Source: a virus (taxonomy: Duplodnaviria; Heunggongvirae; Uroviricota; Caudoviricetes). Taken from it: DNA of 21,890 nt. Under the pieces are notes generated by a model. That model searched no databases. It saw only the letters and a program-made list of their open reading frames with translations, and had not been told where the DNA came from. The translations under genes were made by a program, and so were the position numbers. The stretch spans positions 1 to 21,890 of the IMG/VR virus record IMGVR_UViG_2531839180_000003. One strand, written 5' to 3'. This document shows positions 1 to 19,290 of this stretch, in pieces (within the stretch, counting starts at the first letter, position 1; each line of letters starts with the position of its first letter).

Positions 1-57
1 TGTGTTGTCCTGCATAGCAATGCGCCGTAATACCTTACACCACGGCGCTGATGGTGA

Positions 58-363
58 TTACTCTGGTTCTTTGGTCTTGCGACGCTGGAGTTCTTCGCGT
101 GCAACGGTGACAAGCTGCCCGATTTCTTCCGCTGCTTTGATGCCGATTTGTTCGACCTTAGCCAGGGCATCCAGTGACGACACAAGGGGATTTTCTCCGC
201 TGCCTTCTGCTTGGCGGCGGGCTATTTCTCCGCGCATGGCGGTTACGATAAATCCGGCATTGCTTTCGCCGTCCAGCTTAACGGATTCCATCCCTTGCAT
301 AACATCTAGTGGGACTCTGACAGTTGTCAGTTGTGATTTTGCGTTTTTGTTAGCCGTTGCCAT
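58..363 (-). CDS. putative ribbon-helix-helix (Arc/CopG-like) transcriptional regulator
   Basis: 101-aa ORF. AGGAG Shine-Dalgarno (revcomp of 372-376) lies 8 nt upstream of the ATG. N-terminal strand-helix pattern LTTVRVPLDVMQGMESV resembles RHH folds. Sits back-to-back with the promoter/operator at 425-462. Family assignment is by eye only. Confidence 0.5.
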   Translation of the reverse strand: MATANKNAKSQLTTVRVPLDVMQGMESVKLDGESNAGFIVTAMRGEIARRQAEGSGENPLVSSLDALAKVEQIGIKAAEEIGQLVTVAREELQRRKTKEPE

Positions 364-424
364 TTCTGAAACTCCTAATCATCGGTGTGTTTCAGTATAC
401 ACAAAAAAAGAAATACAAAAAGCC

Positions 425-462
425 TTGACGTGTGTTTCATGCGCTCATAACATGAAACACAC
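425..462 (+). promoter_or_regulatory. sigma70-like promoter overlapped by a 12-bp perfect inverted repeat (operator candidate)
   Basis: -35 TTGACG at 425-430, 17-nt spacer, -10 TAACAT at 448-453. Inverted repeat GTGTGTTTCATG (430-441) / CATGAAACACAC (451-462) with a 9-bp spacer straddles the -10. Confidence 0.5.
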
Positions 463-560
463 CGAAAGGATTGTTGAAATACAAAGAGCAACGCCCCGCA
501 GTGCCGGAAACACATACGGGGCGTCTAACCACCAACGATAACGAGAGTATCGAGGCAGCT

Positions 561-764
561 ATGAGAAATCATACCATACACCCGCGAGGGCGGGATTCGC
601 ACAACCTGAATAAATTCACCTGGCGTTTTATCGCCCTGAGCGCCGCAAAACCGCGTGTGATTACCATCGTGGCCACCAGTGAACAGGAAGCCCGCCAGCA
701 ATCCCCGGCTGGCTGCGTGATGGTGTTCACCGCCCGTATCCGCAAGGAGGTGCGCCATGCCTGA
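561..764 (+). CDS. hypothetical small protein, first gene of rightward operon; start uncertain
   Basis: In-frame part of track ORF 471..764. ATG at 561 is preceded by GAGG. Stop overlaps the start region of the next gene. No recognisable motif. Confidence 0.3.
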   Translation: MRNHTIHPRGRDSHNLNKFTWRFIALSAAKPRVITIVATSEQEARQQSPAGCVMVFTARIRKEVRHA

Positions 765-1077
765 TATGTCAAATTACCAGTACCTGATTAATCCGCATTT
801 TAACTGTGAGCATGATATTGCTAAAAAGGTTTATTCCGCTGCGGATGGGGCTACTGACAATATATCAATGGCTGTTGCGTCAATTGGTAGCCTGATGTGG
901 CATGCGTCAGAAAATGAGGAATATGACGCAAAGGCCATGCGCATTGATATGGGTAATATCGGTTTGTTACTGGCAATGCTTGGACATTTTGATATTTCGT
1001 TACGGTGCACCATTGAAAATGCCACAGATGCATTAAATGCCATAAAGAAAGCGAATACTGATTCAAATCGGGGATAA
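757..1077 (+). CDS. hypothetical protein
   Basis: 106-aa ORF with a strong GGAGG Shine-Dalgarno at 742-746. Same strand and tight spacing with downstream genes. Confidence 0.55.
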   Translation: MPDMSNYQYLINPHFNCEHDIAKKVYSAADGATDNISMAVASIGSLMWHASENEEYDAKAMRIDMGNIGLLLAMLGHFDISLRCTIENATDALNAIKKANTDSNRG

Positions 1078-1083
1078 ATAATC

Positions 1084-1383
1084 ATGAGAACGTATTTATC
1101 TGGCTTGACTGCCAGCGGTTATGCACATCCCAAAATTATCCCCGGCGCTATTTATCGGGATAAGAACGGCAACAGAGTAACAGTAAAATCGATAATGTTT
1201 GACCGTGTGTACTTTATTCGTGATGGCTATTCATTTCATAGCTCGCTGAACGTGGAGATCTTTATTTGCAGATTCCGGCGGGAAATCCCGCCTTCCAGAA
1301 ATAACCATGTGTCACGTGTGGATGTGGATAAAAAACTACAGGAACTGAAAAACATGATTGCCGCGTGGAGAGAGCAGAAATGA
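1084..1383 (+). CDS. hypothetical protein
   Basis: 99-aa ORF with GGGGA upstream of the ATG. Its 3' end overlaps the start of the helicase gene, suggesting translational coupling. Confidence 0.5.
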   Translation: MRTYLSGLTASGYAHPKIIPGAIYRDKNGNRVTVKSIMFDRVYFIRDGYSFHSSLNVEIFICRFRREIPPSRNNHVSRVDVDKKLQELKNMIAAWREQK

Positions 1384-3197
1384 AAAAAGCGCCAAATTTA
1401 AAACACCAACCGCGTGACAAAATGACGGAAGTCATCATTTTTGCGGGTAGTGATGCGTGGGCACATGCGAAGCAGTGGCAGGAACAGGACGGGCGACTGG
1501 CTGGCGATAACGTGCCACCTGTCTGGCTTGGAGAGCAACAACTTGCCGAACTGGACAACCTGCAAATCGTACCAGACGGACGCTATCGCGTGCGTCTCTA
1601 TCAGGCGGGGTTATTGCGTCCGGGACTTGTTAATACCATCGGGCAGAAACTGGCAGCGGCAGGTGTCAGGGATGCTGATTATTACCCTGAAGGAATGCAC
1701 AGCCAGAAACGGGAGAACTGGCGCGAATATCTGGAGCGTGAGCGGGGAGAGCTGGCGGAAAAGAAAAAGGTAGTTGAACTGCCTGTAAAGAAAAAAGAGC
1801 GGGTAAAAGACGATAACGCTTCATCACTGGCGCTTAACCAGATGGGAGCAAGTCAACGCGGCGAAGTTCTCCTGGCACATTATGGTGGTGAACTGGCGAT
1901 TCATGCTGACTCTGACACTGTTCACCATTACAACGGCGTTGTATGGGAGCCGGTTCAGGATAAAGAGTTACAGCGTGCTATGGCGCAGATTTTCATTGAT
2001 GCGGAGATCAGCTATTCACAGAACGCTATTAAATCAGCGGTCGATACCATGAAGTTAAGTTTGCCTGTAATGGGGAATACAGCCCGTAACTTGATTGGAT
2101 TCAGTAACGGGGTATTTGATACCAGAACAGGTAATTTTCGGGAGCATAACAAAAACGACTGGTTGTTAATTGCCAGTGAATTACCGTTCAGCCCACCAGC
2201 AGAGGGGGAAACGCTGGCAACACATGCGCCGAATTTCTGGAAGTGGTTGCACCGTTCGGTGGCTGAGAATGATCGCAAAGCGGATCGTGTACTGGCGGCA
2301 TTATTCATGGTGCTGGCGAACAGATATGACTGGCAGTTATTCATTGAGGTAACTGGTCCTGGTGGAAGCGGTAAAAGCGTAATGGCGGAGATTTGCACCA
2401 TGCTGGCGGGTAAGGCTAATACAGTATCAGCAAGCATGAAGGCGCTGGAAGATGCAAGGGAACGTGCGTTAGTGGTTGGCTTTTCTCTGATTATCATGCC
2501 GGATATGACCCGCTACGCTGGTGATGGGGCAGGGATTAAGGCCATTACAGGCGGTGACAAGGTGGCAATTGACCCGAAACACAAAGCTCCCTACTCAACG
2601 CGTATTCCGGCAGTAGTGCTGGCGGTTAACAATAACGCCATGTCATTCAGTGACCGCAGCGGGGGGATCTCACGTCGTCGGGTGATATTCAATTTTTCGG
2701 AAGTTGTACCGGAGAACGAACGTGATTCGATGCTGGCGGAAAAAATAGAAGGTGAGCTGGCGGTAGTGATTCGCCATCTGCTTACACGGTTTGCTAACCA
2801 GGACGAAGCCAGACGCCTGTTATATGAGCAGCAGAAATCTGAAGAAGCACTGGCGATAAAGCGAGAGGGGGATTCGCTGGTGGACTTCTGCGGCTATCTC
2901 ATGGCGTCGGTAATGTGTGATGGCCTGTTAGTGGGTAATGCTGAAATTGTGCCATTCAGCCCGCGCAGATATCTCTATCATGCCTATCTGGCTTATATGA
3001 GGGCACATGGGTTTGGTAAACCTGTAACACTGACGCGCTTCGGTAAAGATATGCCGGGGGCAATGGCGGAATATGGCAGGGAGTATATGAAACGGAAAAC
3101 GAAGCACGGTTTGCGTTCAAACGTGACACTGACGGAGGAATCAGAAGACTGGATGCCATCATGTGTATCGGTCACTAATGACGATAGCAAAAATTAA
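1380..3197 (+). CDS. P4 alpha-family replication protein (D5/SF3-type helicase domain with Walker A GPGGSGKS)
   Basis: 605 aa from the ATG at 1380 (GGAGAGAG upstream; track ORF begins at 1365). Walker A TGPGGSGKS and Walker B-like LIIMPDM are followed by the motif layout typical of the phage/plasmid primase P4-family C-terminal region. An N-terminal primase active site cannot be confirmed by eye. The TGTTCACC iteron origin lies immediately downstream. Confidence 0.85.
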   Translation: MKKAPNLKHQPRDKMTEVIIFAGSDAWAHAKQWQEQDGRLAGDNVPPVWLGEQQLAELDNLQIVPDGRYRVRLYQAGLLRPGLVNTIGQKLAAAGVRDADYYPEGMHSQKRENWREYLERERGELAEKKKVVELPVKKKERVKDDNASSLALNQMGASQRGEVLLAHYGGELAIHADSDTVHHYNGVVWEPVQDKELQRAMAQIFIDAEISYSQNAIKSAVDTMKLSLPVMGNTARNLIGFSNGVFDTRTGNFREHNKNDWLLIASELPFSPPAEGETLATHAPNFWKWLHRSVAENDRKADRVLAALFMVLANRYDWQLFIEVTGPGGSGKSVMAEICTMLAGKANTVSASMKALEDARERALVVGFSLIIMPDMTRYAGDGAGIKAITGGDKVAIDPKHKAPYSTRIPAVVLAVNNNAMSFSDRSGGISRRRVIFNFSEVVPENERDSMLAEKIEGELAVVIRHLLTRFANQDEARRLLYEQQKSEEALAIKREGDSLVDFCGYLMASVMCDGLLVGNAEIVPFSPRRYLYHAYLAYMRAHGFGKPVTLTRFGKDMPGAMAEYGREYMKRKTKHGLRSNVTLTEESEDWMPSCVSVTNDDSKN

Positions 3198-3211
3198 ACT
3201 TATGGAATAAC

Positions 3212-3432
3212 TGTTCACCACTGTTCACCCTGTCATAAATATCTTTTATATCAGTATATTATAGGGTGAACAGTTATTTATGAACTGTTCACCAAACTAT
3301 TCACTGTTCACCTTTTTGATTGTTTATTGAGCTTCAAGGGTGAACAGTGGTGAACAGTTGGTGAATAGTTTTTGTGAAACTGTTCACCCCTTAACCTTAT
3401 GAATTAAAAGATAAAATATCAAAAGGTGAACA
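3212..3432. repeat. origin of replication: cluster of TGTTCACC iterons
   Basis: Exact TGTTCACC at 3212-3219, 3222-3229, 3286-3293, 3305-3312, 3381-3388. Exact reverse GGTGAACA at 3265-3272, 3339-3346, 3349-3356, 3425-3432. Degenerate copies at 3297-3304, 3360-3367, 3433-3440. An AT-rich spacer at 3232-3263 separates iteron groups. This octamer is the known binding site of P4 alpha in ori and crr. Confidence 0.8.
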
Positions 3433-3518
3433 GGTGAAGGGTTAAAACGCAAAAATTTTAATTTACTGCTGTGAGATAAAGACTATGACAGTAAAGCACA
3501 CAAAAATACGCGCTTGAT

Positions 3519-3719
3519 TTGACGGAACACTGGTTAAGGGTGTCGATAAAAATCATCGACCGCAACGCCGGGGAAGGATATGCGAAAGCACATCCCGAAC
3601 TGATTAGCGCATTCATGACAACGGCAGCTGCAAACTTTGCCACGCTGACAGAACGGGAGATTGCCGAAGCGGAACAGGTGACAACCATCAACGTTAAAAC
3701 CGGAGAGCAGACAGCATGA
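3519..3719 (+). CDS. hypothetical small protein (non-ATG start, uncertain)
   Basis: 66-aa ORF starting at TTG. Its stop overlaps the ssb start as ATGA, suggesting coupling. No clear Shine-Dalgarno. Confidence 0.35.
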   Translation: MTEHWLRVSIKIIDRNAGEGYAKAHPELISAFMTTAAANFATLTEREIAEAEQVTTINVKTGEQTA

Positions 3720-4141
3720 CAGCACAGATAGCGGCTTACGGGCGGCTGGTGGCTGACCCGCAGTTAAAGACCACCAGCAAGGGTACACAAATGACGATGG
3801 CTAGTATGGCGGTCCCCCTTCCGTGCAGCCAGGCAGATGACGGAACGGCGATGATGTGGTTATCCGTCCTGGCGTTTGGCAGACAGGCCGACGCACTGGC
3901 AAAACACCACAAAGGCGAACTGGTGAGCGTGGCGGGTAACATGCAGGTAAGCCAGTGGACAGGCCAGAACGGCGAAACGCGGCAGGGCTGGCAGGTTATC
4001 GCAGACAGCGTGATCAGTGCGCGAACAGCGCGTCCGGGCGGCAAAAAAGGCCAGCAGGGGCAGGCCACTGACGCACTGAACAGGGCAAAACAGCAGACGG
4101 GTCAGCACGATGATCCGTACGGGGACAACATACCGTTTTAG
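3716..4141 (+). CDS. ssb: single-stranded DNA-binding protein (SSB)
   Basis: 141 aa. OB-fold-like N-terminus (IAAYGRLVADPQL...), Gly/Gln-rich linker and C-terminal ...DDPYGDNIPF resembling the canonical SSB acidic tip DDDIPF. GGAGAG Shine-Dalgarno upstream. Confidence 0.8.
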   Translation: MTAQIAAYGRLVADPQLKTTSKGTQMTMASMAVPLPCSQADDGTAMMWLSVLAFGRQADALAKHHKGELVSVAGNMQVSQWTGQNGETRQGWQVIADSVISARTARPGGKKGQQGQATDALNRAKQQTGQHDDPYGDNIPF

Positions 4142-4163
4142 CGACAACAGAGGGGACATTCCA

Positions 4164-4406
4164 GTGACATTTGAAGAAGTCCAGCAACATAAAAAGTTTC
4201 ATGATTTTGATGATCTGGAAACCATGACAGCAAAAAAATATCGCCGTCTGCTTTCTTCCGATGCGTTGTTTGTTGTGGATCATCATGATTTTCTGCGTAG
4301 CTCACTGACCGGGGAAATTTTCGCAACCAACCGTGAGCAGGTGGAAGCGATGATCGAATATCTGTGGAAAATAAGGCGCAGAATGCGAGATCCCGTGAAA
4401 CGGTAA
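4164..4406 (+). CDS. hypothetical protein (start ambiguous between ATG 4110 and GTG 4164)
   Basis: Track ORF 4110..4406. The ATG at 4110 overlaps ssb by 32 nt. The in-frame GTG at 4164 is preceded by GAGGGGA. Followed by the terminator at 4415-4443. Confidence 0.4.
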   Translation: MTFEEVQQHKKFHDFDDLETMTAKKYRRLLSSDALFVVDHHDFLRSSLTGEIFATNREQVEAMIEYLWKIRRRMRDPVKR

Positions 4407-4414
4407 AATAATAA

Positions 4415-4443
4415 AGGCCTGGTAAAATCCAGGCCATTTTTTT
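4415..4443. terminator. bidirectional rho-independent terminator between convergent genes
   Basis: Stem AGGCCTGG (4415-4422) / CCAGGCCA (4429-4436), loop TAAAAT, then a T-run to 4443. The upstream A-run gives a U-tract on the opposite strand. Confidence 0.7.
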
Positions 4444-4948
4444 ACAGTAAGCCTATTAGGGCACTTGCGCCAGCCCCAACAATGCTGGCAACGGTACTGT
4501 TTTCCAGTAACTGCTTTAATACTGATTTGGCTTGTACATCCCCCGATTTAGCGACTTTTTCAACCAGTTCAGTGATGCTGATGTTTACCAGCATATGGTT
4601 ATGCTCACCTATCTGCACTTGATCACCACTAATTGAACCAATGTTAAATGTATTACTTTTAGTTGGCGTCATATGTTCATTTCCCGTGATATTTTCAATA
4701 TAGAGAGTCAACATATTTGGATGATTGGTTCCCTGTCTGCGGGTTCCATTGGGAAGCAACTTCATATCTATAATTTTTAGATTTATCTCGTTTTTACCGA
4801 CACGCTGGATAATGTGTTGACCAATAGTTACTTCCGGTTCATTTGTATATGGAATTAATACCTTGTTTTCTTTTGCGTTTCTTTTACCTCTGAATGATTC
4901 GCCATTAATTATGAAAGTATCAGGATATACCATTGCGCTTAAATTCAT
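4442..4948 (-). CDS. hypothetical AT-rich protein with short hydrophobic C-terminal tail (accessory gene candidate)
   Basis: 168-aa ORF and the only minus-strand gene inside the 363-11547 plus-strand block. AAAGGA Shine-Dalgarno upstream. Possible -10 TATTAT / -35 TTTACA on the minus strand at 4980-5010. C-terminus STVASIVGAGASALIGLL. No recognisable family. Confidence 0.65.
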   Translation of the reverse strand: MNLSAMVYPDTFIINGESFRGKRNAKENKVLIPYTNEPEVTIGQHIIQRVGKNEINLKIIDMKLLPNGTRRQGTNHPNMLTLYIENITGNEHMTPTKSNTFNIGSISGDQVQIGEHNHMLVNISITELVEKVAKSGDVQAKSVLKQLLENSTVASIVGAGASALIGLL

Positions 4949-5234
4949 GATGCGTCCTTTGTTGTAGTCAGAGACAGCAATAATAGGCCATGGTTTACTT
5001 CTTTTGTAAATTATTTGTTCGTGTTCTTTCGTGGTTGTTCGGTCTGACTGACAGGTGTTTACATACTGATTTTTATGTATATGTTGGAGCGTGGCACTCA
5101 GACGTGAGCCGCCACAATGCCGCCTGACCCCCTGCGCGATGCCGGGTTGATCTGCGAGATGCCGAGAGTGTCGGGCGGCGCTCCCCCCGTGTTGGTTTCA
5201 CGTCCTGAATCTTAACCAATACGAGAAAACCTTC

Positions 5235-6404
5235 ATGAAGAAATTAATCGAACTCCGCCAGCAAAAAAACGCCCTGAAAAACCAGATGCGATCCCTGCTG
5301 GAAAAAGCCGACAGTGAAAACCGTAGTCTGAACGCTGAAGAAGGCAAACAGTTTGATGAACTGCGTGCAAAAGCTGATGCCCTCGACACAGAAATTTCCC
5401 GCCTCGAGTCTGTGGCTGATGAAGAACGCAGCAAGCCAGGAACGGGCATCCAGAAATTATCATCTGATGAATTGCGTAACTACATCGTAACCGGAGATGT
5501 GCGATCACTGTCCACCAGCACTGACAGCGGCAGGGATGGCGGATATACCGTAATTCCTGAGCTTGATCGCGAAGTCATGCGCCAGCTACAGGATGACAGT
5601 GTTATGCGCGTGATCGCGACCGTGAAGACCGCAAAATCAAATGAGTTTCAGAAACTGGTTTCCACTGGCGGCGCAACTGTAGGACGAGGCACAGAAGGCA
5701 GCGCACGCAGTGAAACCAACACCCCGAAAATTGAACGCGTAACCATCAAGTTGAATCCGATCTACGCCTACCCGAAAACCACGCAGGAAATCCTGGATTT
5801 TTCAGAGGTGGATATTCTGGGCTGGTTATCCTCCGAAATTGCCGACACGTTCGCCAGCACCGAAGAGGATGATTTTGTTAATGGCGACGGTAACGGCAAG
5901 CCGAAAGGCTTCATGGCTTACACCCGTGCGGCGACCAGTGACAAAACCCGCGCTTTTGGCACCATTGAAAAAATAGTAGCGGCAAGTGGAACCGCCATTA
6001 CAGCGGACGAACTGATCGACATTCTCTACAAGCTGAAAGCGAAATACCGCAAAAATGCCGTCTGGGTGATGAACTCGGGCACGGCAGGGACACTACAGAA
6101 GCTGAAAAATGAGAACGGCGATTATATCTGGCGCGACAGCCTTAAAGAAGGTGCGCCGGATATGTTGCTTGGTCGTCCTGTTTACTGCCTGGAGTCCATG
6201 CCGGACATCGGCGCAGGAAAAGCACCGCTAGCGGTTGGCGATTTCAGTCGTGGTTATTTCATCGTTGATCATGTAACAGGGATTCGCACCCGACCGGACA
6301 ACATTACTGAACCCGGATTCTACAAGGTCCACACGGATAAATATCTGGGCGGTGGTGTGGTGGATTCAAACGCCATCAAAATTCTGGAAATGAAAGCTGG
6401 CTAG
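5235..6404 (+). CDS. HK97-family major capsid protein with N-terminal coiled-coil delta domain
   Basis: 389 aa. Coiled-coil N-terminus (LRQQKNALKNQMRSLLEKA...), then capsid body with the NGDGNGKPKG motif matching HK97 gp5 NGDGTG and a conserved C-terminal region. Confidence 0.9.
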   Translation: MKKLIELRQQKNALKNQMRSLLEKADSENRSLNAEEGKQFDELRAKADALDTEISRLESVADEERSKPGTGIQKLSSDELRNYIVTGDVRSLSTSTDSGRDGGYTVIPELDREVMRQLQDDSVMRVIATVKTAKSNEFQKLVSTGGATVGRGTEGSARSETNTPKIERVTIKLNPIYAYPKTTQEILDFSEVDILGWLSSEIADTFASTEEDDFVNGDGNGKPKGFMAYTRAATSDKTRAFGTIEKIVAASGTAITADELIDILYKLKAKYRKNAVWVMNSGTAGTLQKLKNENGDYIWRDSLKEGAPDMLLGRPVYCLESMPDIGAGKAPLAVGDFSRGYFIVDHVTGIRTRPDNITEPGFYKVHTDKYLGGGVVDSNAIKILEMKAG

Positions 6405-6416
6405 TCATGAGTAAGG

Positions 6417-6438
6417 AGGAGGCTGCGGCCTCCTTTTT
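6417..6438 (+). terminator. intrinsic terminator or attenuator immediately after the major capsid gene
   Basis: Stem AGGAGGC (6417-6423) / GCCTCCT (6428-6434), loop TGCG, then TTTT (6435-6438), 13 nt after the capsid stop codon. Confidence 0.55.
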
Positions 6439-6458
6439 CAGCTTTATGGAGTACACCG

Positions 6459-7019
6459 ATGAAAAACACCGATTTTGAAATCCGCACATCTGAACTGACC
6501 GCCAGCAATAAAAAGCTGGTGGGGTATGCCGTTCGCTGGAACAGCCTTTCAGAAATTATCTGGGACGAATTCCGCGAACAGTTCACGCCGGGGGCTTTTG
6601 CTGACTATCTGGCGACGGGTAATGATGTGCGCTGCCTGTATGAGCATGACTATACCCAACTGCTGGGGCGCACCAAATCCGGCACTCTGGTACTGACTGA
6701 GGATAACACCGGGTTACGTTTTGAACTGACACCGCCGGATACCCAGCTTGGAAAAGATGTGCTTACGCTGGTGGAGCGTGGCGACATTACAGGAATGAGC
6801 TTTGGTTTTCGCGCATTATGCGAGGAGTGGAGTATCGCGCAAAAACCGTATCTGCGTACCGTAACCGCCGCTGAACTCCGTGAAATCACAATAACGTCGA
6901 TGCCTGCTTATCCAGAATCTGGCGTGGAGATTGCCCACCGTTCGTTGTTTGCACAGCACCCTGAATTACGTCCGACAGGAAATAATCGTCATCGCTGGTC
7001 TGAGCTGGCGGGGTTGTGA
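6459..7019 (+). CDS. HK97-family prohead protease
   Basis: 186 aa with GGAG Shine-Dalgarno. Motifs such as GMSFGF and the overall pattern fit the prohead serine protease (S78) family. Position is adjacent to capsid and portal. Confidence 0.8.
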   Translation: MKNTDFEIRTSELTASNKKLVGYAVRWNSLSEIIWDEFREQFTPGAFADYLATGNDVRCLYEHDYTQLLGRTKSGTLVLTEDNTGLRFELTPPDTQLGKDVLTLVERGDITGMSFGFRALCEEWSIAQKPYLRTVTAAELREITITSMPAYPESGVEIAHRSLFAQHPELRPTGNNRHRWSELAGL

Positions 7020-7020
7020 T

Positions 7021-8235
7021 ATGTGGTGGCCTTTTAGTCGTAAAAAAAGCGAGCAGCGTAACCTGTCCATTGATGATTTTCTGGCGCTGTCCGGCGTACC
7101 GAATACCGGATCCGGAGAATATGTTTCTGCTGGGACGGCTGAATCATTGCCTGCAGTGATGAATGCGGTTTCTGTCATCGCTGAGGCGGTGGCCACGATG
7201 CCGTGTTATCTGTATCTGGTACGTAATGACAAGGGCAGGGAGGCGCGGGAATGGCTGGACAGTCACCCGGTAGATATTCTGCTGAATGAGCAGCCTAATT
7301 CGTGCCAGACACCTTACCAGTTTAAACGCACAATGATGCGTCACTGCCTGCTGAACGGTAACGCCTATGCGGTTATTGAGTGGGGGCAGGACGGGCAGCC
7401 AAAATCACTTCATCCTTATGCGCCGAGGTGTGTTGTACCGGAACGCACAGGCGCACACAAATACCGCTATACCATCACCGAACCCTGTACAGGAACGGTG
7501 CGCACGTATTTACAGGAAGAAGTTTTGCATCTCCGCTATGCCTCGGATGATGGCTTTCTGGGGCGTTCCCCCGTCACGATTTGCCGTGAGGCGCTGGGGC
7601 TTGGCCTTGCTCAACAGCGTCACGGAGCCAGCATTATGAAAGATGGCATGATGGCGGCAGGGATTATCACGTCAGGCGAATGGCTGGACGGCGTGAAAGG
7701 TAAACAGGCATTGGATGCTCTGGAACGCTACAAGGGGGCGAAAAATGCCGGAAAAACGCCAATCCTTGAAGGGGGCATGGATTACAGGCAACTGGGAATG
7801 AGTAACCAGGATGCGGAATGGCTGGCCTCCCGTCGCTTCTCCATTGAAGACATCGCCCGCATGTTCAACGTATCGCCTATTTTTCTGCAGGAATACAGCA
7901 ACAGCACCTACAGCAATTTCAGCGAGGCAAGCCGCGCGTTTCTGACCATGACAATGCGCCCGTGGCTGGCGAACTTCGAACAGCAAATCAAGGCCGCTTT
8001 GCTGGTGGCTTCTCCCGTACCTGGTACCCGTTATCTGGTTGAGTTTGATTCAGCCGATTTATTACGCGCCACACCCACCGAACGTTATGCCACGTATGAG
8101 AAAGGGATTAAGAACGGGATCATGAATCCGAACGAAGCCCGTGAGCGTGAGGGTATGCCGCCGCGTGAAGGTGGTGATGAGTTCAGCCAGGCATGGAAAC
8201 AGACTGTGGAAATTAAAGGGAGAAAAGATGAGTGA
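7021..8235 (+). CDS. HK97-family portal protein
   Basis: 404 aa from the ATG at 7021, directly after the protease stop (track ORF extends to 6931). Portal-like C-terminal region ...NPNEAREREGMPP. Confidence 0.85.
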   Translation: MWWPFSRKKSEQRNLSIDDFLALSGVPNTGSGEYVSAGTAESLPAVMNAVSVIAEAVATMPCYLYLVRNDKGREAREWLDSHPVDILLNEQPNSCQTPYQFKRTMMRHCLLNGNAYAVIEWGQDGQPKSLHPYAPRCVVPERTGAHKYRYTITEPCTGTVRTYLQEEVLHLRYASDDGFLGRSPVTICREALGLGLAQQRHGASIMKDGMMAAGIITSGEWLDGVKGKQALDALERYKGAKNAGKTPILEGGMDYRQLGMSNQDAEWLASRRFSIEDIARMFNVSPIFLQEYSNSTYSNFSEASRAFLTMTMRPWLANFEQQIKAALLVASPVPGTRYLVEFDSADLLRATPTERYATYEKGIKNGIMNPNEAREREGMPPREGGDEFSQAWKQTVEIKGRKDE

Positions 8236-8530
8236 AGCCAGAATTACACCTGATGAAGTCAGGGCACATCTTCGACTTGATGATGATTTATCCGGTGAAG
8301 GCGAACTTCTGAAAATGTATACCGATGCGGCGCTGGAAGCCTGCCAGAAGCATATCGGGAAACGTTTTGAAGACGGGCTGGAATTTACCCCGGCAATGCG
8401 TGTTGGTTGCCTGATGTACATCGCTTTCCTGTACGAGAACCGGGAAGCGGTTTCACCAGTGGAGCACTCGGAACTGCCTATGGCTATTTCTGCGCTCTGG
8501 TCAGTTTATCGTGACGTAGGGGTGTACTGA
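8228..8530 (+). CDS. gp6-like head-tail connector (head completion) protein
   Basis: 100 aa from the ATG at 8228, overlapping the portal stop as ATGAGTGA, with AGGGAG Shine-Dalgarno. Pattern RAHLRLDDD...AALEA...FLYENRE is typical of phage gp6-like connectors. Confidence 0.7.
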   Translation: MSEARITPDEVRAHLRLDDDLSGEGELLKMYTDAALEACQKHIGKRFEDGLEFTPAMRVGCLMYIAFLYENREAVSPVEHSELPMAISALWSVYRDVGVY

Positions 8531-8970
8531 TGCCGTGGCAACCATTAAGGCGATGCACTGAGCCTGGCTGTAATAAGCGCGTGAAGTCCGGCAAGTGTGA
8601 AGAGCACAGGCGGGCTGCATGGCGTGCAGAGGATGCCAGACGGGGACACCGCCGCGCGCGCGGGTATTCCCGACAGTGGGACAAATACCGCGCCCTGTAC
8701 CTGAGCAAAAACCCGTTATGCGTGCGTTGTCTGGCTAAGGGGATTTATACGCCAGCTCTTGTGGTGGATCACATCATTCCCATCAATGGCGGCGGTGATG
8801 TTCTCTTCTGGCCTGAGTGGAATCACCAGGCATTGTGCCAGACGTGCCACAACCGTAAGACGACACGAGAAGATCCAGCCACGAAAGCAAACCGTAAAGC
8901 GGGCATGTATCGCGAGCAGGAAGAACGGGCGGCACACCGTAACGACTGGATGTATGGCGATGATGACTGA
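8530..8970 (+). CDS. phage-associated HNH endonuclease
   Basis: 146 aa. Cys pairs (CTEPGC, CVRC, CQTCHNRK) and VDHIIP...N...H fit an HNH zinc-binding nuclease. Start overlaps the connector stop as TGATG. Lies upstream of terS as in HK97-type cos phages. Confidence 0.85.
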   Translation: MPWQPLRRCTEPGCNKRVKSGKCEEHRRAAWRAEDARRGHRRARGYSRQWDKYRALYLSKNPLCVRCLAKGIYTPALVVDHIIPINGGGDVLFWPEWNHQALCQTCHNRKTTREDPATKANRKAGMYREQEERAAHRNDWMYGDDD

Positions 8971-9258
8971 ACAGGAGCAAACCAGGCTGATACGTGGACT
9001 GATAAGGCAGCGTGACACATGGAAGACACAGGAGACAGAGCACAAAGCCAACAGGACTGGGCGCACAAAACGCACCACAGCGAAGCGATTAACCGACCGT
9101 GACCGCGAGGTCATGGAATGTTTTCGCAATCGCTGGTGAGGCCGTCAGAGGGGGTGGGGGTGGTTTTCAGGACGAAACCGTCCCTGCCGGACACCGACCG
9201 CCCCCTCAAATTTTTGTGCACGGTAATTTTTTTGAAAATAATTGGGCGAAAAAAGAAC

Positions 9259-9615
9259 ATGGCAAGACCACCAAAAGCCCCCGCTTACCTGGATGAAATC
9301 GCGGTCAGGCAGTGGAAGGAAAAATCGCGCCAGCTTTCCGGGCGGGAAGACCTTACCCCCGCCGACTGGAGCAATCTGGAACTGTATTGCGTTAACTACT
9401 CTATATACCGCAAAGCCGTCGAAGACCTTGCGACGCGCGGGTTCAGCATTGTTAACAGTCAGGGCAGCGAGAGCAGAAACCCCGCACTGAGCGCAAAGGC
9501 TGACGCAGAAAGAATAATGATCAAAATGGCTTCTTTGCTGGGTTTTGACCCGGTAAGCCGTCGCAGAAATCCACCGGAAACAGAGGAAGAGGACGAACTT
9601 GACCGCCTGGCATGA
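9259..9615 (+). CDS. terS: terminase small subunit (P27-family-like)
   Basis: 118 aa from the ATG at 9259; the track ORF from 9118 has a low-complexity N-terminal extension that is probably non-coding. MARPPKAP...LDE...W...LELYC pattern and position directly upstream of terL. Confidence 0.7.
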   Translation: MARPPKAPAYLDEIAVRQWKEKSRQLSGREDLTPADWSNLELYCVNYSIYRKAVEDLATRGFSIVNSQGSESRNPALSAKADAERIMIKMASLLGFDPVSRRRNPPETEEEDELDRLA

Positions 9616-11260
9616 GTACGCAGAAGGCGTAAAAAACGGCAAAATTACGGCCTGTAAACGACTGAAACAGGCTGTTAAACGGTATTTTTCTGACCTTGAA
9701 AACTCCCTTTACACGTTCGATCCGGAGGTCGTGGAGCGGTTTATTGCCTTTTCCCGGGTGTGCCCGCACGTAAAAGGCGCAATGCGCGGTAGCCCCATTG
9801 AACTTGAGCCGTGGCAGCAGTTCGCCTTTGCCTGCATCCTGGGATTTAAGGTTAAGGCCACCGGACGGCGCAAATACACCAGCGCATTCATTGAAGTACC
9901 GCGAAAAAATGCCAAATCCACGGTCGCCGCTATCCTGGCTAACTGGTTTCTGGTTATGGAAAACGGGCAGCAGGATATTTACACCGCCGCCGTGAGTCGT
10001 GATCAGGCGCGGATCGTGTTTGATGATGCGCGTCAGATGTGCCTTTTATCCCGACCGTTACGAAAGCGGGTAAATATTCAGGCGCACAAGGTGATACACC
10101 CGAAAACCAACAGCCTGTTAAAGCCACTGGCAGCAAAAGCGGCAACCATTGAGGGGACAAACCCGAGTCTTGCCATTGTGGATGAATATCACCTGCACCC
10201 AGACAACGGGGTTTATTCCGCACTTGAACTGGGGATGGGGGCGCGTCCGGAGGGGCTGTTATTTGCCATCACCACATCGGGGAGCAACGTTGTTTCAGCC
10301 TGTAAACAACACTACGACTATTGCTGCCAGATACTGGATGGTGAAGAGGTGAACGAATCCATGTTCGTACTGATTTACGAGCTGGATGATGAAAGCGAGG
10401 TTGACGATCCGGCGATGTGGATAAAGGCGAATCCCAATATCGATGTTTCCGTCGATCGTGAAAAACTGGCCTCAACCATCCAGAAAGCGCGGGGTATTCC
10501 GTCGCAGTGGGTGGAAATGCTCACCAAGCGATTCAATATCTGGTGTCAGGGGGCTACGCCGTGGATGGGTAACGGTGCATGGGCGGAGTGCGCCGGAACG
10601 TTCGCTGAGGCGGATTTATACGGGCAGGAGTGCTATGCGGGGCTGGACTTATCATCAACCAGCGATATTTCCAGCGTGTGCTATGCCTTTCCGGTCGGTA
10701 AAAAGATTATGCTGGTTTCACGTCACTATCTACCGGAATTTCAGCTACAGAACCCTGCCAATAAAAACCGCGCCATCTATCGCCAGTGGGCAAAGGCGGG
10801 CTGGATACGCACAACACCGGGTGACTGCATTGATTATGACCGTATCCGTGATGACATCATGGCGGATGCAGAGAATTTCAATATCAGGCTGGTGGGTTTC
10901 GATACATGGAACGCCACGCACCTGAGGACGCAGCTACAGGGAGCGGGATTTGAGGTGGAGCCGTTCCCGCAAACGTACCTTCGTTTTAGTCCGGCGGCGA
11001 AATCGTTCGAAGTTTTTGTTAACCGGAAGGTGATTGTTCATCGTGGTGATCCGGTGCTGGCCTGGTCAATGAGTAATGTTGTGATGCAGAGTGACGCGAA
11101 CGCCAATATCAAGCCGAACAAGAAAAAATCATCCAATAAGATAGACCCGAGCGTTGCGGCGCTGATGGCGTTTGGCACATTCCAGGCTGAGCATGAGGAA
11201 TTTGCATTTGATATGAGCGACAGCCAGAAAGAGCGACTTGCGGCATTTGATGGGGTATGA
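9599..11260 (+). CDS. terL: terminase large subunit
   Basis: 553 aa from a TTG start at 9599, preceded by GAGGAAGAGGA, overlapping terS by 17 nt. ATPase N-terminal domain and nuclease C-terminal domain pattern typical of Terminase_1-type large subunits. Confidence 0.9.
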   Translation: MTAWHEYAEGVKNGKITACKRLKQAVKRYFSDLENSLYTFDPEVVERFIAFSRVCPHVKGAMRGSPIELEPWQQFAFACILGFKVKATGRRKYTSAFIEVPRKNAKSTVAAILANWFLVMENGQQDIYTAAVSRDQARIVFDDARQMCLLSRPLRKRVNIQAHKVIHPKTNSLLKPLAAKAATIEGTNPSLAIVDEYHLHPDNGVYSALELGMGARPEGLLFAITTSGSNVVSACKQHYDYCCQILDGEEVNESMFVLIYELDDESEVDDPAMWIKANPNIDVSVDREKLASTIQKARGIPSQWVEMLTKRFNIWCQGATPWMGNGAWAECAGTFAEADLYGQECYAGLDLSSTSDISSVCYAFPVGKKIMLVSRHYLPEFQLQNPANKNRAIYRQWAKAGWIRTTPGDCIDYDRIRDDIMADAENFNIRLVGFDTWNATHLRTQLQGAGFEVEPFPQTYLRFSPAAKSFEVFVNRKVIVHRGDPVLAWSMSNVVMQSDANANIKPNKKKSSNKIDPSVAALMAFGTFQAEHEEFAFDMSDSQKERLAAFDGV

Positions 11261-11265
11261 CGAGA

Positions 11266-11547
11266 ATGACTGAAACTGATCTACTAAAAATAATTCGCCG
11301 CATTACCGGAATCAGTCAGCAGCCTGACGAACAGGCTACACAGCCGGACAGCGTGATAGCCGAAAATTACGCGCGTGTGGTGGCTGAGGTAATGCGCCGT
11401 GACGGTATTGAGCTTAACGGCGTGGATATGCGCAACATACGAACCAGAGTTCTTGAGTTGCTGGCATACCGTCGCCGTTCTCAACAACGGAGGGAGAGCG
11501 CGAAAAATACTTACCAGTGGAGGAAGCCGGAGCACTTACGGCGGTAA
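11266..11547 (+). CDS. hypothetical protein
   Basis: 93 aa from the second in-frame ATG just after the terL stop. No recognisable motif. Confidence 0.4.
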   Translation: MTETDLLKIIRRITGISQQPDEQATQPDSVIAENYARVVAEVMRRDGIELNGVDMRNIRTRVLELLAYRRRSQQRRESAKNTYQWRKPEHLRR

Positions 11548-11564
11548 CTGGTTGATATTACCGA

Positions 11565-11773
11565 AAGTGCAAAAATGCACTTAGCAACTGGTGGCGAGTT
11601 GCAGATCTGCAACTCGACTATGAAACTACCCGTAGTTTGGGTAGTAAGAGTAACACCCAGATTTTGGGGCTTACTCGCGATACCCAAATAAAGGGTATCG
11701 GTGTAAGAAATATCGTTTCTCATATGTGAGCACCGAGGGCGGAATTCCGCCTTCGGTTACTTATTGTGCTCAT
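11565..11773. repeat. array of five inverted repeats including a 22-bp perfect palindrome
   Basis: Hairpin AAGTGCA/TGCACTT (11565-11582). Perfect palindrome CGAGTTGCAGATCTGCAACTCG (11595-11616). CTACCC/GGGTAG (11627-11644). CGATACCC/GGGTATCG (11678-11700). Nested hairpin 11726-11773 with core CCGAGGGCGG-AATT-CCGCCTTCGG (11733-11756). Confidence 0.6.
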
Positions 11774-12152
11774 GCACAGGGAGGGGCGGGTCAAATCTCT
11801 GTACCCTGACGTCTTCCGGACTGCCAGCCCCATCGATTTTTTATACCCGCGAAAAATGAAAAACGCTTCACGCTGGTGGGCCTGATGCCGATATGGTGAG
11901 CCACATACCGGAAATATCCACCAGCACGGCAACGGCAGAATAGCCACAACACAGAAAACCCACGAATATGGGGTTTTTGTTATGGCATGGTCATGATGAC
12001 CGCCCCTGCTCTGAATGGTGGAAATCACCACGCAGATCATCCACCAGCTTCATGACGGATAGCCGGAAAATGATAACGGTTACGCAAAACCCCCAGCAAA
12101 TTTCCCTTTTGTTTGTTATTGTTCGTCGTTGTTCGTAGAGCTTCAACGAAAT

Positions 12153-12176
12153 GTGTGGTCAGTTGTGTGGTCAGTT
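12153..12176. repeat. tandem direct repeat TGTGTGGTCAGT x2 upstream of int
   Basis: Exact 12-mer at 12153-12164 and 12165-12176. Also GTTCGT x2 at 12121-12136. Located 190-250 bp upstream of the integrase start. Confidence 0.6.
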
Positions 12177-12368
12177 TTGAGGCTTTTAATTTATGCATTC
12201 TTAAAAACTTATTTATTATCAATTACTAACAGGAATTAGTAAGAAATACCCGTATTACCTGATCTGGATAATGCCAGCGTAGTCCTGGCGATTATTCAAG
12301 ATAAAATCAAAGACTTATCTGCGATTTTCGAACCGTTTTGTTTAGCCGATCACATCGAGGCTCACAAA

Positions 12369-13727
12369 ATGGGACACCAGACCATACGCCACACCATTAA
12401 ACGTAACGGGGTTTATTACGTTCGTTTCCGCCTGCCTGATAATAAGTTTTTCCGTAAGTCGTTAGAGACTGACAGCCACACCCAGGCGCAGTTGCTCATG
12501 TCTTTTGCTTCTCCTGTAATTCCTCTGGTTCAACGTGGAGCTATCCAACCGGATCACTTCGGTAAGCGTCTTTCTGAGTATGGCAATAGTCTGAAGCAGC
12601 AGAATGAACAATGGCTGGCGCACCAATTTCTGAATGATGCGCGGCGCAATATTCAGCCGATAGTTGTTCATGAAGACCGCGAGGTTGTCTCTCCTTCGGT
12701 AGATGAGGAAGAACAAACTGAAGCACAACCAGAACACGTGTTAACACTGGCTGGCGCGTGGAATATGTATAAAGAGGAGAAAGCCCAAAACTGGACGAAG
12801 GCTATCTCTCAAGCCAATGAGCGCTTTATGGAGGTGATGTTGATTGTCTTGGGTTCATCAACTGATGTAACCACGATTACCAAGCAAGACATTAAACAGG
12901 TAATGGAGGTTGTTGAAAACTTGCCTAAGCGTGTTGTGCAGCCTTATCGGTCAATGACGGTTCAGCAACTGATCGAGTGTGATGATGTTCCGCCAGAAGA
13001 TTTGGTTGGCGCTGAGTCTATCCACAAGCATTTGAAGATTTACAAATCGCTGTTTAAAACCTTCCTGACAGACAATAAAGATATTCTGGAGAAGTCTCCG
13101 ACTGATGGGATCGTCGCCGCACCGTCGAAAACGAGGTTTGGAGCATACAGTGCAGCAGAAATGAGAAAGTTTGTGGGGTGGGCGCTCAGGCAGCCTGACG
13201 GTTGGCAGAAGTGGATCACTCTTTTGTTGGCGTACACGGGAGCCAGAAGAGGCGAGATCGCAAAGCTGGAAAAATCTCATATCAAATATGATGAGGATAG
13301 TCAGCGGCACTATCTCCTTATCGCGGAAGGAGGACAGGGGAAAACTGAGAACGCGACTAGACAGGTTGTAATACATCCCAAACTGATCGAATGGGGATTC
13401 CTTGATTTTGTAAACCGCCAATGGAAAGAGAAAATATTCTCGCCTGTGTCGGGTAAGAACATGCCGAAGATCGGCAAAGTTTTAGCAGATGTGCGTGATC
13501 AGCTTGGTATTCCTTATCTTGATGACTATGGGCAGCGGCGATTGGTGCATAGCTTCCGACATACCATGATTTCAACCTGTTTAGCTGGCTGGGTTGGCAA
13601 CTTAGCGCACTTGCAGCAGGTTGTAGGGCATGAGAAAAGCGGGGCAGGGATCACTAGAAGATACTTACACATTTTTCCTCTGAAAACTGTGTGTTACGTC
13701 ATTGATGGATTGTGTTGGAATGGCTAA
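12369..13727 (+). CDS. int: tyrosine recombinase (phage integrase family)
   Basis: 452 aa with GAGG Shine-Dalgarno. Catalytic signature elements TGARRGE (Arg I), HSFRHT (HxxR box II) and GHEKSGAGITRRYLH (His...Tyr). Confidence 0.85.
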   Translation: MGHQTIRHTIKRNGVYYVRFRLPDNKFFRKSLETDSHTQAQLLMSFASPVIPLVQRGAIQPDHFGKRLSEYGNSLKQQNEQWLAHQFLNDARRNIQPIVVHEDREVVSPSVDEEEQTEAQPEHVLTLAGAWNMYKEEKAQNWTKAISQANERFMEVMLIVLGSSTDVTTITKQDIKQVMEVVENLPKRVVQPYRSMTVQQLIECDDVPPEDLVGAESIHKHLKIYKSLFKTFLTDNKDILEKSPTDGIVAAPSKTRFGAYSAAEMRKFVGWALRQPDGWQKWITLLLAYTGARRGEIAKLEKSHIKYDEDSQRHYLLIAEGGQGKTENATRQVVIHPKLIEWGFLDFVNRQWKEKIFSPVSGKNMPKIGKVLADVRDQLGIPYLDDYGQRRLVHSFRHTMISTCLAGWVGNLAHLQQVVGHEKSGAGITRRYLHIFPLKTVCYVIDGLCWNG

Positions 13728-16994: not shown

Positions 16995-18300
16995 AAAGGT
17001 TTTCCTTATGGAGGGTTTTAGACGTGGAGAGAGTCCACAGGGTGATCCGGTGCAACGCCGGATATAAGGACCGCCACAGAGGACAATCCGAATGATTGGA
17101 AGATGGGAGGCCGTGGATTGAATAGAAGAGGGCGGCATCATGCCGCCCTTTCTAATCTGGCTCTCTCTCACCCTCGCAGGGTGGGGGGAGGTGTAAACCT
17201 CTTTTTAGTGGTCACTCACCCGCCAGCGTCACGGGAGCAACCGCCAGCCAATGGGCAAATAACCACAAAAAAGAACCCGGAAGGAGACACCGGGATGAAG
17301 GCAATGTAACTTACTGTCTGATCACTTGTTTTCCTGTGTAGCCTCAGAGCCTTACATTATTTGCTTTCATGGTTCAGCAAAGAAGCCACAGAGGAAAACG
17401 GACGCCTGAAATACGCCCGGAAACCATCGAAGAAAATCAATAGTTTATCGTTGCAACTGGGGAACCACCCCGGCCCAACTGTGGACCCCGTGGAGGGTCG
17501 CTACAATCGAGGAGATCGCTTGTATTCTGAAGGGCCGCAGTTAGCGACGCTTTAGAATAGGGTCTGTGGCGCAAGCCCTATGATTAGAGGCGTTTTGAAT
17601 CATAGGAGTGTCATCAACTGGCGGAACTTGAGGAGTGGACCGCACACAAAGCATTCTGGCAAGTGGAGTTGAAAGAACGCTTTGGGTGAGGGCCGGGGCG
17701 GGGGAGAAGTCCGCCCGGCTCACTCAGTACAGACCCACAGGGGCTGGCTAAAGCACATGTTAATGAAAGTTCTGTACAGGTGTGAGGCGGTAAGCTGCAA
17801 AACGGCGATTTCGACATCCTCACCACATCACACACCATGAATACTATGTTATCACAAATGAGAATTATTATCAACAAGTATTAATTGCATTCCTCTTTTA
17901 TTTGTGGTCTTGCGTGGCTTCCCCACATATTGGGAAGAGAGGCAAATCAATTTTTATTAACTGGCGGGTAGGTTGTGGGTTTACATGTTGGCACTTTTGA
18001 CAACAAACCATGTAGCCCAAAAGGCACACAAGAGTATATAACTACATAAAACCTCGCTACGCTCGCCCTCCGGGCTACGGTTTTATTGATCTTATATTAT
18101 AACTTCATTCAATAACTAATTGTTTACACAATTAATTATTTCATTCGTTATAATGTGTTCTTGAAACCTTCCCGCCCTTCCGGGCTTACCAGGTTTTAGG
18201 CCGTTGGCCTGTTTTCCACAGTGTGGAGGCTCGCCTGTGTGGCTCACTCCAGGCAGGGACCCCGGAAATATTTTCCGGCCTGGGGTGTATCAATTTGAAA

Positions 18301-18346
18301 CAGGGGGGTGTGTCAGAATGACACAGGGGTGTGTCAAAATGGCACA
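18301..18346. repeat. tandem pair of dyad-symmetric sites (operator or iteron candidate)
   Basis: CAGGGGGGTGTGTCAGAATGACAC (18301-18324) and CAGGGGTGTGTCAAAATGGCACAC (18325-18346). Each contains GTGTCA-N3-TGACAC-like dyad symmetry. Flanking direct repeat ATAAGACTAA at 18349-18358 and 18374-18383. Confidence 0.55.
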
Positions 18347-18761
18347 CAATAAGACTAATTATAAAACTAACCCATAAGACTAACACCCAGGGCCAGGTCA
18401 AGACCTTTAAGGGAGTGTTGGGAAATCGTAGATTGATTGGTAAGAGACTGATCTCTTTAAGCGTCCTACAGACGCGCCTCTTTGGCAGCGCTCGCACCAG
18501 CGAGCAAGACCCCTTTGGAACACCGCACGATGTAAGGTGACCTCTGGGCGGCGGGGTGGCGGGCCCCCGGCCCGGTACACAGTGCCGCACAGCGTACAGA
18601 ACCACAAGCAGCAGAAGCCCCTAAACGCGCCGCTGTGGCGCTCTCTCATACGTAGAAAAGGAAACACCCTATAAACGCCCTCCGGCGCTCTGAGAGCCTT
18701 ACAGGGGGGCTGTGCATTTAGCACAATAAACAACCGAATGCAAGCGAATGCAAAAATATTC

Positions 18762-18790
18762 TTGCATTTTCATGTAAAATGGTGTAAAAT
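18762..18790 (+). promoter_or_regulatory. sigma70-like promoter with ATGCAA/TTGCAT repeats for the rightward operon
   Basis: -35 TTGCAT at 18762-18767, 17-nt spacer, -10 TAAAAT at 18785-18790. Direct repeats AATGCAA at 18737-18743 and 18747-18753 with inverted copy TTGCATT at 18762-18768. Confidence 0.45.
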
Positions 18791-18864
18791 AGATACCGTG
18801 ATGAGGTGGGTGGTTTGATATAAAAATCCCCATCATAATATAACGCACCTAACCGGAGAATGCA

Positions 18865-19290
18865 ATGAGTATTTACCTTGATGTTGAAAAAATGGTTGAA
18901 CGTATCGATCAGCGTGATTTGAGTCGTTCAACTCTTCAGGGACAACGTAGCCGATTCAAAGCCGCCGGGCGTACCGCTGAAGTGGAAGCAATCGGCAAGG
19001 CTCTGGAGATGACCAAATCCAGCGCCTCCGGCGTCCTCCGCCAGTCTCAGCGCCTTGCCACCAAAATTACAGAGATGGACGCAGAGAAAGCATTAGAGCT
19101 TAAAGCAACCGTTGCGCTGTTCGCTTCCAAGTCTACGGATCTGCAAGCCTCTATTGTGCTGGCTTTCCAATCCTTCTTTGAGGTTAAAGGTGTAACCCTG
19201 GACCACGATGAGGTGATGGCCCTGTTAATGTTGAAAGCATCAGCGGATTTTGAGGACATGACAGGCGAGCTACCAATTATTGTACATTAA
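18865..19290 (+). CDS. hypothetical protein
   Basis: 141-aa ORF with GGAGA Shine-Dalgarno. First gene downstream of the promoter at 18762-18790. Confidence 0.5.
   Translation: MSIYLDVEKMVERIDQRDLSRSTLQGQRSRFKAAGRTAEVEAIGKALEMTKSSASGVLRQSQRLATKITEMDAEKALELKATVALFASKSTDLQASIVLAFQSFFEVKGVTLDHDEVMALLMLKASADFEDMTGELPIIVH

Follow-up and report, generated by a model that had tools for sequence, protein, structure and literature searches.

Positions 1–12255 of the viral record examined here (IMG/VR IMGVR_UViG_2531839180_000003, a stretch of 21,890 nucleotides referred to as the window) are, with a probability of about 0.85, a capsid-forming phage-inducible chromosomal island (cf-PICI), namely the larger right-hand part (12.3 kb) of an integrated island of ~15.1 kb. 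Apart from the loss of its head-closure gene, this satellite is an ordinary member of the published family of Escherichia coli cf-PICIs, and it adds nothing to the cf-PICI concept: publications already cover the family and its life cycle, and even a homologous capsid has a published structure, while nearly identical copies are present in more than a hundred sequenced E. coli genomes. What is of interest in it are the missing closure gene, the riboswitch as its target and the second island in tandem with it. The original prediction, made from the window sequence, had placed such an element at 1380–11260 and had taken an integrase as its right boundary. The element runs instead from before position 1 to 12255, and the integrase in question (12369–13727, 452 aa) is the property of a second island, which occurs alone in E. 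coli SCU-316.

The extent of the satellite can be read from chromosomal copies. E. coli O114:H49 strain 90-9280 is 100% identical to window positions 1–12282 over 12,282 bp, and many other E. coli chromosomes match the same segment at ≥98.9%. In 90-9280 a 14-bp direct repeat, AGAAATACCCGTAT, marks both ends of the element; its copies, at 9111 and 24242, are 15,131 bp apart. The neighboring chromosomal genes are rcnR and thiM, and neither flank contains a tail or lysis gene. The ~2.9 kb situated left of window position 1 harbor int, the gene of a DUF6387 protein and alpA; int encodes a tyrosine integrase with Arm-DNA-bind_3 and Phage_integrase domains, and the AlpA protein (PF05930, E 4.8e-16) is 45% identical to P4 ORF88. 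The search for tail and lysis genes in continuous synteny, named beforehand as the finding that would turn the element into an ordinary complete prophage, is therefore negative, because the 90-9280 copy sits between rcnR and thiM without them.

Judged by the features used for recognizing cf-PICIs (Methods of He et al., bioRxiv 10.1101/2025.02.11.637232, and de Sousa et al.), the island lies with its 15,131 bp, 12,255 bp of them in the window, inside the size range of ~10–18 kb. It possesses an integrase gene at its end and alpA (both read in the 90-9280 copy), a replication module with an origin, and its own capsid protein, protease, portal, HNH endonuclease and small and large terminase subunits (TerS, TerL), at 61–93% amino acid identity to tested cf-PICIs; lysis genes are absent from 1–12255, and so is a complete tail module. 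Only one of the two head-tail joining genes is present, the gp6-type one (8228–8530), and the head-closure gene of SPP1 gp16 type is missing; elements without one core gene are taken as 'Type B' by SatelliteFinder (de Sousa et al.). The att-bounded unit lacks the tail module and the holin/endolysin cassette of a complete temperate tailed phage: in agreement with the prediction, Pfam and PHROGs assign no open reading frame (ORF) in 1–12255 to a family of tail proteins, holins or endolysins, and its other ORFs match only phage families of unknown function or the Icd-like, YlcI and DUF4222 families.

The assignment is carried by the packaging genes. Two tested islands served as references, EcCIEDL933, the prototype cf-PICI from E. 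coli O157:H7 EDL933 (Alqurainy et al., bioRxiv 10.1101/2022.09.08.507074), and EcCIGN02175, a cf-PICI known from several genera (He et al.); the former was read from the EDL933 chromosome and the latter from a 100%-identical copy in E. coli GN06667, with coordinates taken from Table S1 of He et al. Nine packaging genes of the window follow each other in the same order as in EcCIEDL933 (56–93% amino acid identity) and EcCIGN02175 (61–87%), so that the homology search proposed earlier bears out the cf-PICI reading. The capsid protein with its delta domain, protease, portal, gp6-type connector, HNH endonuclease, TerS and TerL, all named in the prediction, were each found on the plus strand. The capsid protein matches PDB entry 9GYI (E 7e-154), the EcCIEDL933 capsid, which according to the depositing paper has T=4 architecture, and is 63% and 76% identical to the capsid proteins of EcCIEDL933 and the other reference, respectively. 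To records of ordinary phage size it is at most 37% identical, a 106.5-kb Klebsiella phage record aside; this record is the fourth of four 'phage' records exceeding 60% identity in the capsid protein, the other three being 3.8–16.5 kb long. Among these small records vB_KppS-Ant (LR881103), obtained from an induced prophage, is a cf-PICI.

Further along the operon, the HNH endonuclease is 80–84% identical to its reference counterparts. The small ORF at 8954–9139 would, by its place in the gene order, correspond to gene 1792 of EcCIEDL933, without which transfer was severely reduced. When four cf-PICIs are compared, the 119-nt gap between this ORF and terS has a mean column identity of 85% and contains long invariant blocks; the linear record of vB_KppS-Ant terminates in the GGGGTGGGGG..GTTTTCAGGAC block of the gap 5′ of terS, which makes 9140–9258 the probable cos region.

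The head set had been described as a complete HK97-type set. All genes named for it are present, but the head-closure gene is not: in EcCIEDL933, EcCIGN02175 and vB_KppS-Ant an SPP1 gp16-type closure gene (TIGR01563) is located between portal and connector, whereas the connector gene of the window begins before the portal gene has ended, with an overlap of 8 nt, and no gene lies between them. A tblastn search of the whole window with the closure proteins of the two reference cf-PICIs found nothing. The 93-aa ORF following terL was considered as a substitute closure protein and rejected, since EcCIEDL933 contains this ORF in addition to a closure gene.

The closure-less form is a lineage and not an accident. 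Its portal-connector junction is found in one piece in ~159 of 5426 complete E. coli genomes (≥95% identity), compared with ~375 of 5426 for the version with a closure gene (~85% identity). The closure-less module occupies at least three insertion sites, namely rcnR/thiM, yhdJ/fis and the inside of a prophage terL, where the integrases and replication genes joined to it vary. For copies separated by a dS of ~0.08–0.17, dN/dS amounts to 0–0.09 for protease, portal, connector, HNH, TerS and TerL; for the 8954–9139 ORF a value of 0.67 is obtained in one of two comparisons, which rests on only 7 differences. A scan of IMG/VR for the closure-less junction returned 42 loci, which are no proof of encapsidation because all but two derive from isolate-genome predictions.

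Two readings of this gene loss have to be weighed. According to the first, the island is a decaying cf-PICI that forms no infective particles and is inherited only vertically. Besides the missing gene itself, the behavior of EcCIEDL933 speaks for it, in which mutation of any gene of the packaging module but 1792 abolished transfer, as does the remark of de Sousa et al. that rare incomplete variants may be defective. Decay is nevertheless improbable: the portal-connector junction is clean, the annotations of five genomes give every other gene as intact, purifying selection is strong in six of the seven packaging genes compared (at dS ~0.1), and the recurrence of the same module with varying integrases at the three sites listed above implies continued mobility. 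According to the second reading the closure-less module probably works, most likely with a borrowed closure protein, because it is present in ~159 of 5426 genomes, at no fewer than three sites and under strong purifying selection. As the EcCIEDL933 mutants, that of gene 1792 excepted, lost transfer, the closure function is then probably supplied in trans. Two observations fit supply in trans. First, the closure proteins of cf-PICIs are 48–53% identical to those of HK97-type prophages, versus 35–50% to each other, and the connectors are 56–62% identical among the three reference cf-PICIs and the window but only 24–36% identical to prophage connectors. Second, the connectors of closure-less islands retain the conserved C-terminal YRDVGVY motif in the alignment.

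In tested cf-PICIs the adaptor/connector pair is reported to set which tails are usable, and stable tail-less capsids to drive the spread between species. For the closure-less lineage (~3% of complete E. coli genomes) it can tentatively be proposed, with doubt prevailing, that both the tails and the head-closure (stopper) protein are taken from the helper, which would make the lineage helper-dependent inside the same cell; stable DNA-filled, tail-less capsids would then not be released, unlike in EcCIEDL933 and EcCIGN02175. A natural lineage of this kind offers a test of which partner, adaptor or closure protein, does what.

Sister copies of the closure-less module were encountered in E. coli 2014C-3075 and ETEC4085, where cf-PICIs are inserted in terL of an HK97-type lambdoid prophage. 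Their packaging modules show 95–99% protein identity to that of the window, with 69% for the capsid protein. The prophage terL is split at codons ..VNF(F/L)TKH.., with a core of approximately AATNTTNTTACCAA and arm repeats GTGTATTGC, and the split prophage retains its closure, tail and lysis genes while its terminase is lost. De Sousa et al. mention a preprint according to which satellites can integrate in prophages; a description of prophage terL as a satellite target was not found in the literature. These copies would fit the borrowing of a closure protein, the prophages having kept closure protein, tails and lysis but being unable to package themselves.

Several points weigh against the interpretation given so far. 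Int and alpA of the satellite lie outside the window and are attributed to it from identical copies elsewhere. Both the position of cos and the source of a closure protein are deduced. Finally, the EcCIEDL933 mutants could mean that closure loss has left this lineage unable to transfer itself.

The replication module is of P4 type. The helicase aligns with residues 290–771 of P4 alpha, i.e. the helicase and origin-binding part, at 47.7% identity (blastp, E 9e-163), and as only 112 of its residues precede this match the alpha primase domain is absent, for which reason priming is probably carried out by a host primase. Just 3′ of the helicase gene, like crr in P4, an iteron cluster is located: the motif GGTGAACAGT, allowing at most one mismatch, has 12 matches in the window where 1.1 are expected, and 10 of the 12 fall inside the 225-nt stretch 3210–3434. 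The octamer TGTTCACC, annotated as 'ori type 1 repeat' in P4 (NC_001609), occurs there in nine exact copies within 3212–3432. The alpha-type helicase, iteron origin and single-stranded DNA-binding protein (SSB) on which the prediction was built are accordingly all confirmed. Its suggestion that the pairing of a P4-type origin with a capsid set deserved documentation holds in so far as the combination is real, but it is not new, since EcCIGN02175 has it already, with a helicase 76% identical to that of the window and, at the corresponding place, the octamer in eight copies; EcCIEDL933 has none.

These resemblances could be taken as signs of a P4-like satellite, with the exact P4 iterons, a helicase 48% identical to alpha, the P4-related AlpA and an arm-binding integrase in its favor. 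Such an assignment is very unlikely, as homologues of sid, delta, psu and epsilon are lacking (Pfam, PHROGs and blastp against the P4 proteins) and the capsid protein, portal and terminase, which P4 obtains from P2, are encoded by the island itself; what the two have in common is confined to the module for replication and regulation.

Insertion of the satellite has taken place in the thiM riboswitch. A block of ~70 nt containing the TGTGTGGTCAGT repeats on the attR side is also found beside attL, 5′ of int, in 90-9280. As scans of the window for tRNA genes and Rfam families returned nothing, a tRNA is ruled out as the attachment site. At its right end the satellite does not restore the 5′ half of the thiamine pyrophosphate (TPP) aptamer, and the Rfam TPP model gives no match in the 90-9280 locus but 74.9 bits in SCU-316, which contains the second island alone and where a complete copy of the aptamer is present at the far end of this island. 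Because the satellite splits the aptamer, carriers of the satellite only may have lost thiamine control of thiMD, whereas the tandem arrangement of the window probably leaves thiM regulated because of the aptamer copy brought by the second island (read in SCU-316, that end being outside the window). Two unrelated islands have att sites 26 nt apart in one riboswitch, the second of which rebuilds the aptamer. Nothing relevant on thiM as a target of PICIs or integrases was found in the literature.

The second, independent island starts at 12283 and continues past the window end (21890). In SCU-316 it fills the rcnR-thiM gap alone (~18042–31534, ~13.5 kb) and is bounded by a duplication of ~70 nt. 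It encodes an Old-like ATPase (PADLOC Old, E 1.5e-45), O-like winged-helix replication proteins and, on the minus strand, a homologue of the lambda gpE-like capsid protein (PF03864 detected on relatives) with only 14 clusters among 5.8 billion proteins. In SCU-316 a gene whose 704-aa product has a genuine tape-measure domain (PF20155, E 3e-26) lies just past the equivalent of the window end, and the gene of a 188-aa recombinase follows; by this comparison a tape-measure-family gene probably lies just outside the window, within the second island. With one gene of the capsid family and one of the tape-measure family as its sole structural genes, the island suggests an undescribed kind of satellite, which may be more novel than the cf-PICI finding. 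The window segment 12200–21890 (9.7 kb) has no match in the plasmid collection. That the satellite is an ordinary complete prophage with tail and lysis genes beyond the window, as the tape-measure gene might intimate, can be dismissed with near certainty, since this gene is part of another island that has an integrase and a ~70-nt att duplication of its own, the second island occurs without the satellite in SCU-316 and the satellite without the second island in 90-9280, and 15.1 kb is far too small for a tailed phage.

A different protein annotated as 'tail length tape measure protein' is encoded just after terL in vB_KppS-Ant (2036–4333, 765 aa); it has no Pfam match and is not similar to the 704-aa protein with the tape-measure domain from the second island. 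Within the second island, 91 non-coding nt (18006–18096) share 98.9% identity with an unannotated stretch of Cronobacter phage CR9 and 85–86% with related Cronobacter, Klebsiella and Pectobacterium phages of 142–150 kb. The minus-strand RNA of this segment is predicted to fold into a long hairpin (−36.9 kcal/mol, z −3.87) and matches neither tRNAs nor Rfam; an Rfam scan of 17100–18900 at an E-value threshold gave chance-level matches only.

The features of the satellite part are listed below. The Icd-like protein is 52–54% identical to the Icd-like genes of both reference islands. The slot before the packaging operon, which is occupied by different genes in other cf-PICIs and in which cf-PICIs are expected from the literature to carry immune systems, here contains a gene with a local GC content of 0.43, compared with ~0.52; this gene (4442–4948), like the small conserved ORFs, has no match in PADLOC, Pfam or NCBIfam.

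Table 1. Features of the satellite and of its right junction in window coordinates.
Feature	Position	Strand	Basis
YlcI/YnfO-family small protein, regulatory/early region	58..363	-	phrog_6522, E 1e-63; PGAP name in 90-9280 copy
Icd-like protein (cell-division inhibitor/repressor family)	561..764	+	phrog_6196, E 2e-40; PGAP name
Hypothetical protein, 106 aa	757..1077	+	phrog_15327, unknown function
DUF4222 protein directly 5′ of replication gene	1084..1383	+	PF13973, E 2.4e-18; position as in reference cf-PICIs
P4 alpha-like SF3 helicase/origin-binding protein (Pri-Rep)	1380..3197	+	Pfam D5_N, DUF5906, Pox_D5
Replication origin, 10 iterons in both orientations	3210..3434		9 of 10 with exact P4 type-1 octamer TGTTCACC
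Small conserved protein 5′ of ssb	3519..3719	+	phrog_1231; 83% identical to EcCIEDL933 gene in same position
SSB	3716..4141	+	PF00436, E 1.8e-15; 69% identical to EcCIEDL933 SSB
Hypothetical protein, 82 aa	4158..4406	+	phrog_1957; 35–43% identical to reference cf-PICI genes in same position
Accessory (cargo) gene, 168 aa, in variable slot before packaging operon	4442..4948	-	phrog_5789, unknown function
HK97-fold major capsid protein, N-terminal delta/scaffolding arm of ~100 aa	5235..6404	+	PF05065, E 1.9e-71, residues 102–385
Prohead serine protease (S78)	6459..7019	+	PF04586, E 6e-46
Portal	7021..8235	+	PF04860, E 1.3e-92; 81–87% identical to reference cf-PICI portals
gp6-type head-tail connector (adaptor Ad1)	8228..8530	+	TIGR01560, E 4.8e-20; phrog_40; PF05135; alignment
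HNH endonuclease, terminase partner for cos cleavage	8530..8970	+	PF01844, E 8.8e-10
Small protein between HNH and terS	8954..9139	+	77% identical to EcCIEDL933 ORF in same position
Putative cos region, 119 nt	9140..9258		Conservation and end of vB_KppS-Ant record
TerS, P27 family	9259..9615	+	PF05119, E 4.2e-23; 83–88% identical to reference cf-PICI TerS
TerL, ATPase and nuclease domains	9599..11260	+	PF03354, PF20441; 93% identical to EcCIEDL933 TerL
Conserved 93-aa protein after terL, function unknown	11266..11547	+	phrog_1561; 73% identical to EcCIEDL933 gene in same position
Tandem TGTGTGGTCAGT repeats, probable arm-type integrase sites (P′ arm)	12152..12175	+	Repeat block shared with attL side
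attR core AGAAATACCCGTAT, right end of satellite, in thiM TPP riboswitch aptamer	12242..12255		14-mer repeated in 90-9280
thiM riboswitch sequence, 26 nt, between satellite and second island	12257..12282		Junction comparison with 90-9280 and SCU-316

By analogy with the tested relatives, whose published life cycle comprises induction of alpA by the helper, small capsids of their own making, exclusive packaging and tails taken from the helper (Alqurainy et al.; He et al.), the best model for the element would be the following. A helper phage would turn on alpA, ~2.9 kb to the left and outside the window, and the island would excise at the 14-bp core. The alpha-like helicase would bind the TGTTCACC iterons and replicate the element together with the SSB of the island, probably with priming by a host primase. 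From the late operon small HK97-fold proheads would be built of capsid protein, protease and portal, whereupon HNH, TerS and TerL would cut cos 5′ of terS and the heads would be filled with one 15-kb genome. The gp6-type adaptor would cap the portal, tails and lysis would come from the helper, and a closure protein would most likely be provided by the helper or a co-resident cf-PICI before tail docking.

In comparison with known systems, EcCIEDL933 shares with the satellite its size of ~15 kb, an early layout of int, alpA, Icd-like gene, DUF4222 gene, replication gene, small ORF and SSB gene, and a late layout of capsid, protease, portal, connector, HNH, small ORF, TerS, TerL and 93-aa ORF, with amino acid identities of 56–93% (TerL 93%, portal 81%, capsid 63%). 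It differs by the closure gene between portal and connector, a DUF927 primase, the lack of TGTTCACC iterons and an integration site at roxA/phoQ. EcCIGN02175 is similar in its alpha-like helicase (76%) with the TGTTCACC iteron cluster just 3′, in the packaging order (61–87%) and in a slot for accessory genes on the opposite strand that precedes the capsid gene; unlike the satellite it contains a closure gene and is inserted at yhdJ/fis, an SSB is not annotated in it, and its cargo genes are different. P4 has in common with the satellite the helicase/origin-binding part of alpha (48%), the type-1 octamer 3′ of the gene as in crr, an AlpA-type regulator and an arm-binding tyrosine integrase; in contrast, it possesses the alpha primase domain, sid, delta, psu and epsilon, and itself encodes neither capsid protein nor portal nor terminase. 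HK97 and HK97-type lambdoid prophages, finally, share the HK97-fold capsid protein with delta arm, the S78 protease, the gp6-type adaptor and the packaging set of HNH, P27-type TerS and TerL. The satellite differs from them by the absence of tail, lysis and head-closure genes, by a capsid protein at most 37% identical to theirs, and by its gene order, which is capsid, protease, portal ... TerS, TerL in the satellite and TerS, TerL, portal, protease, capsid in the HK97-type prophages.

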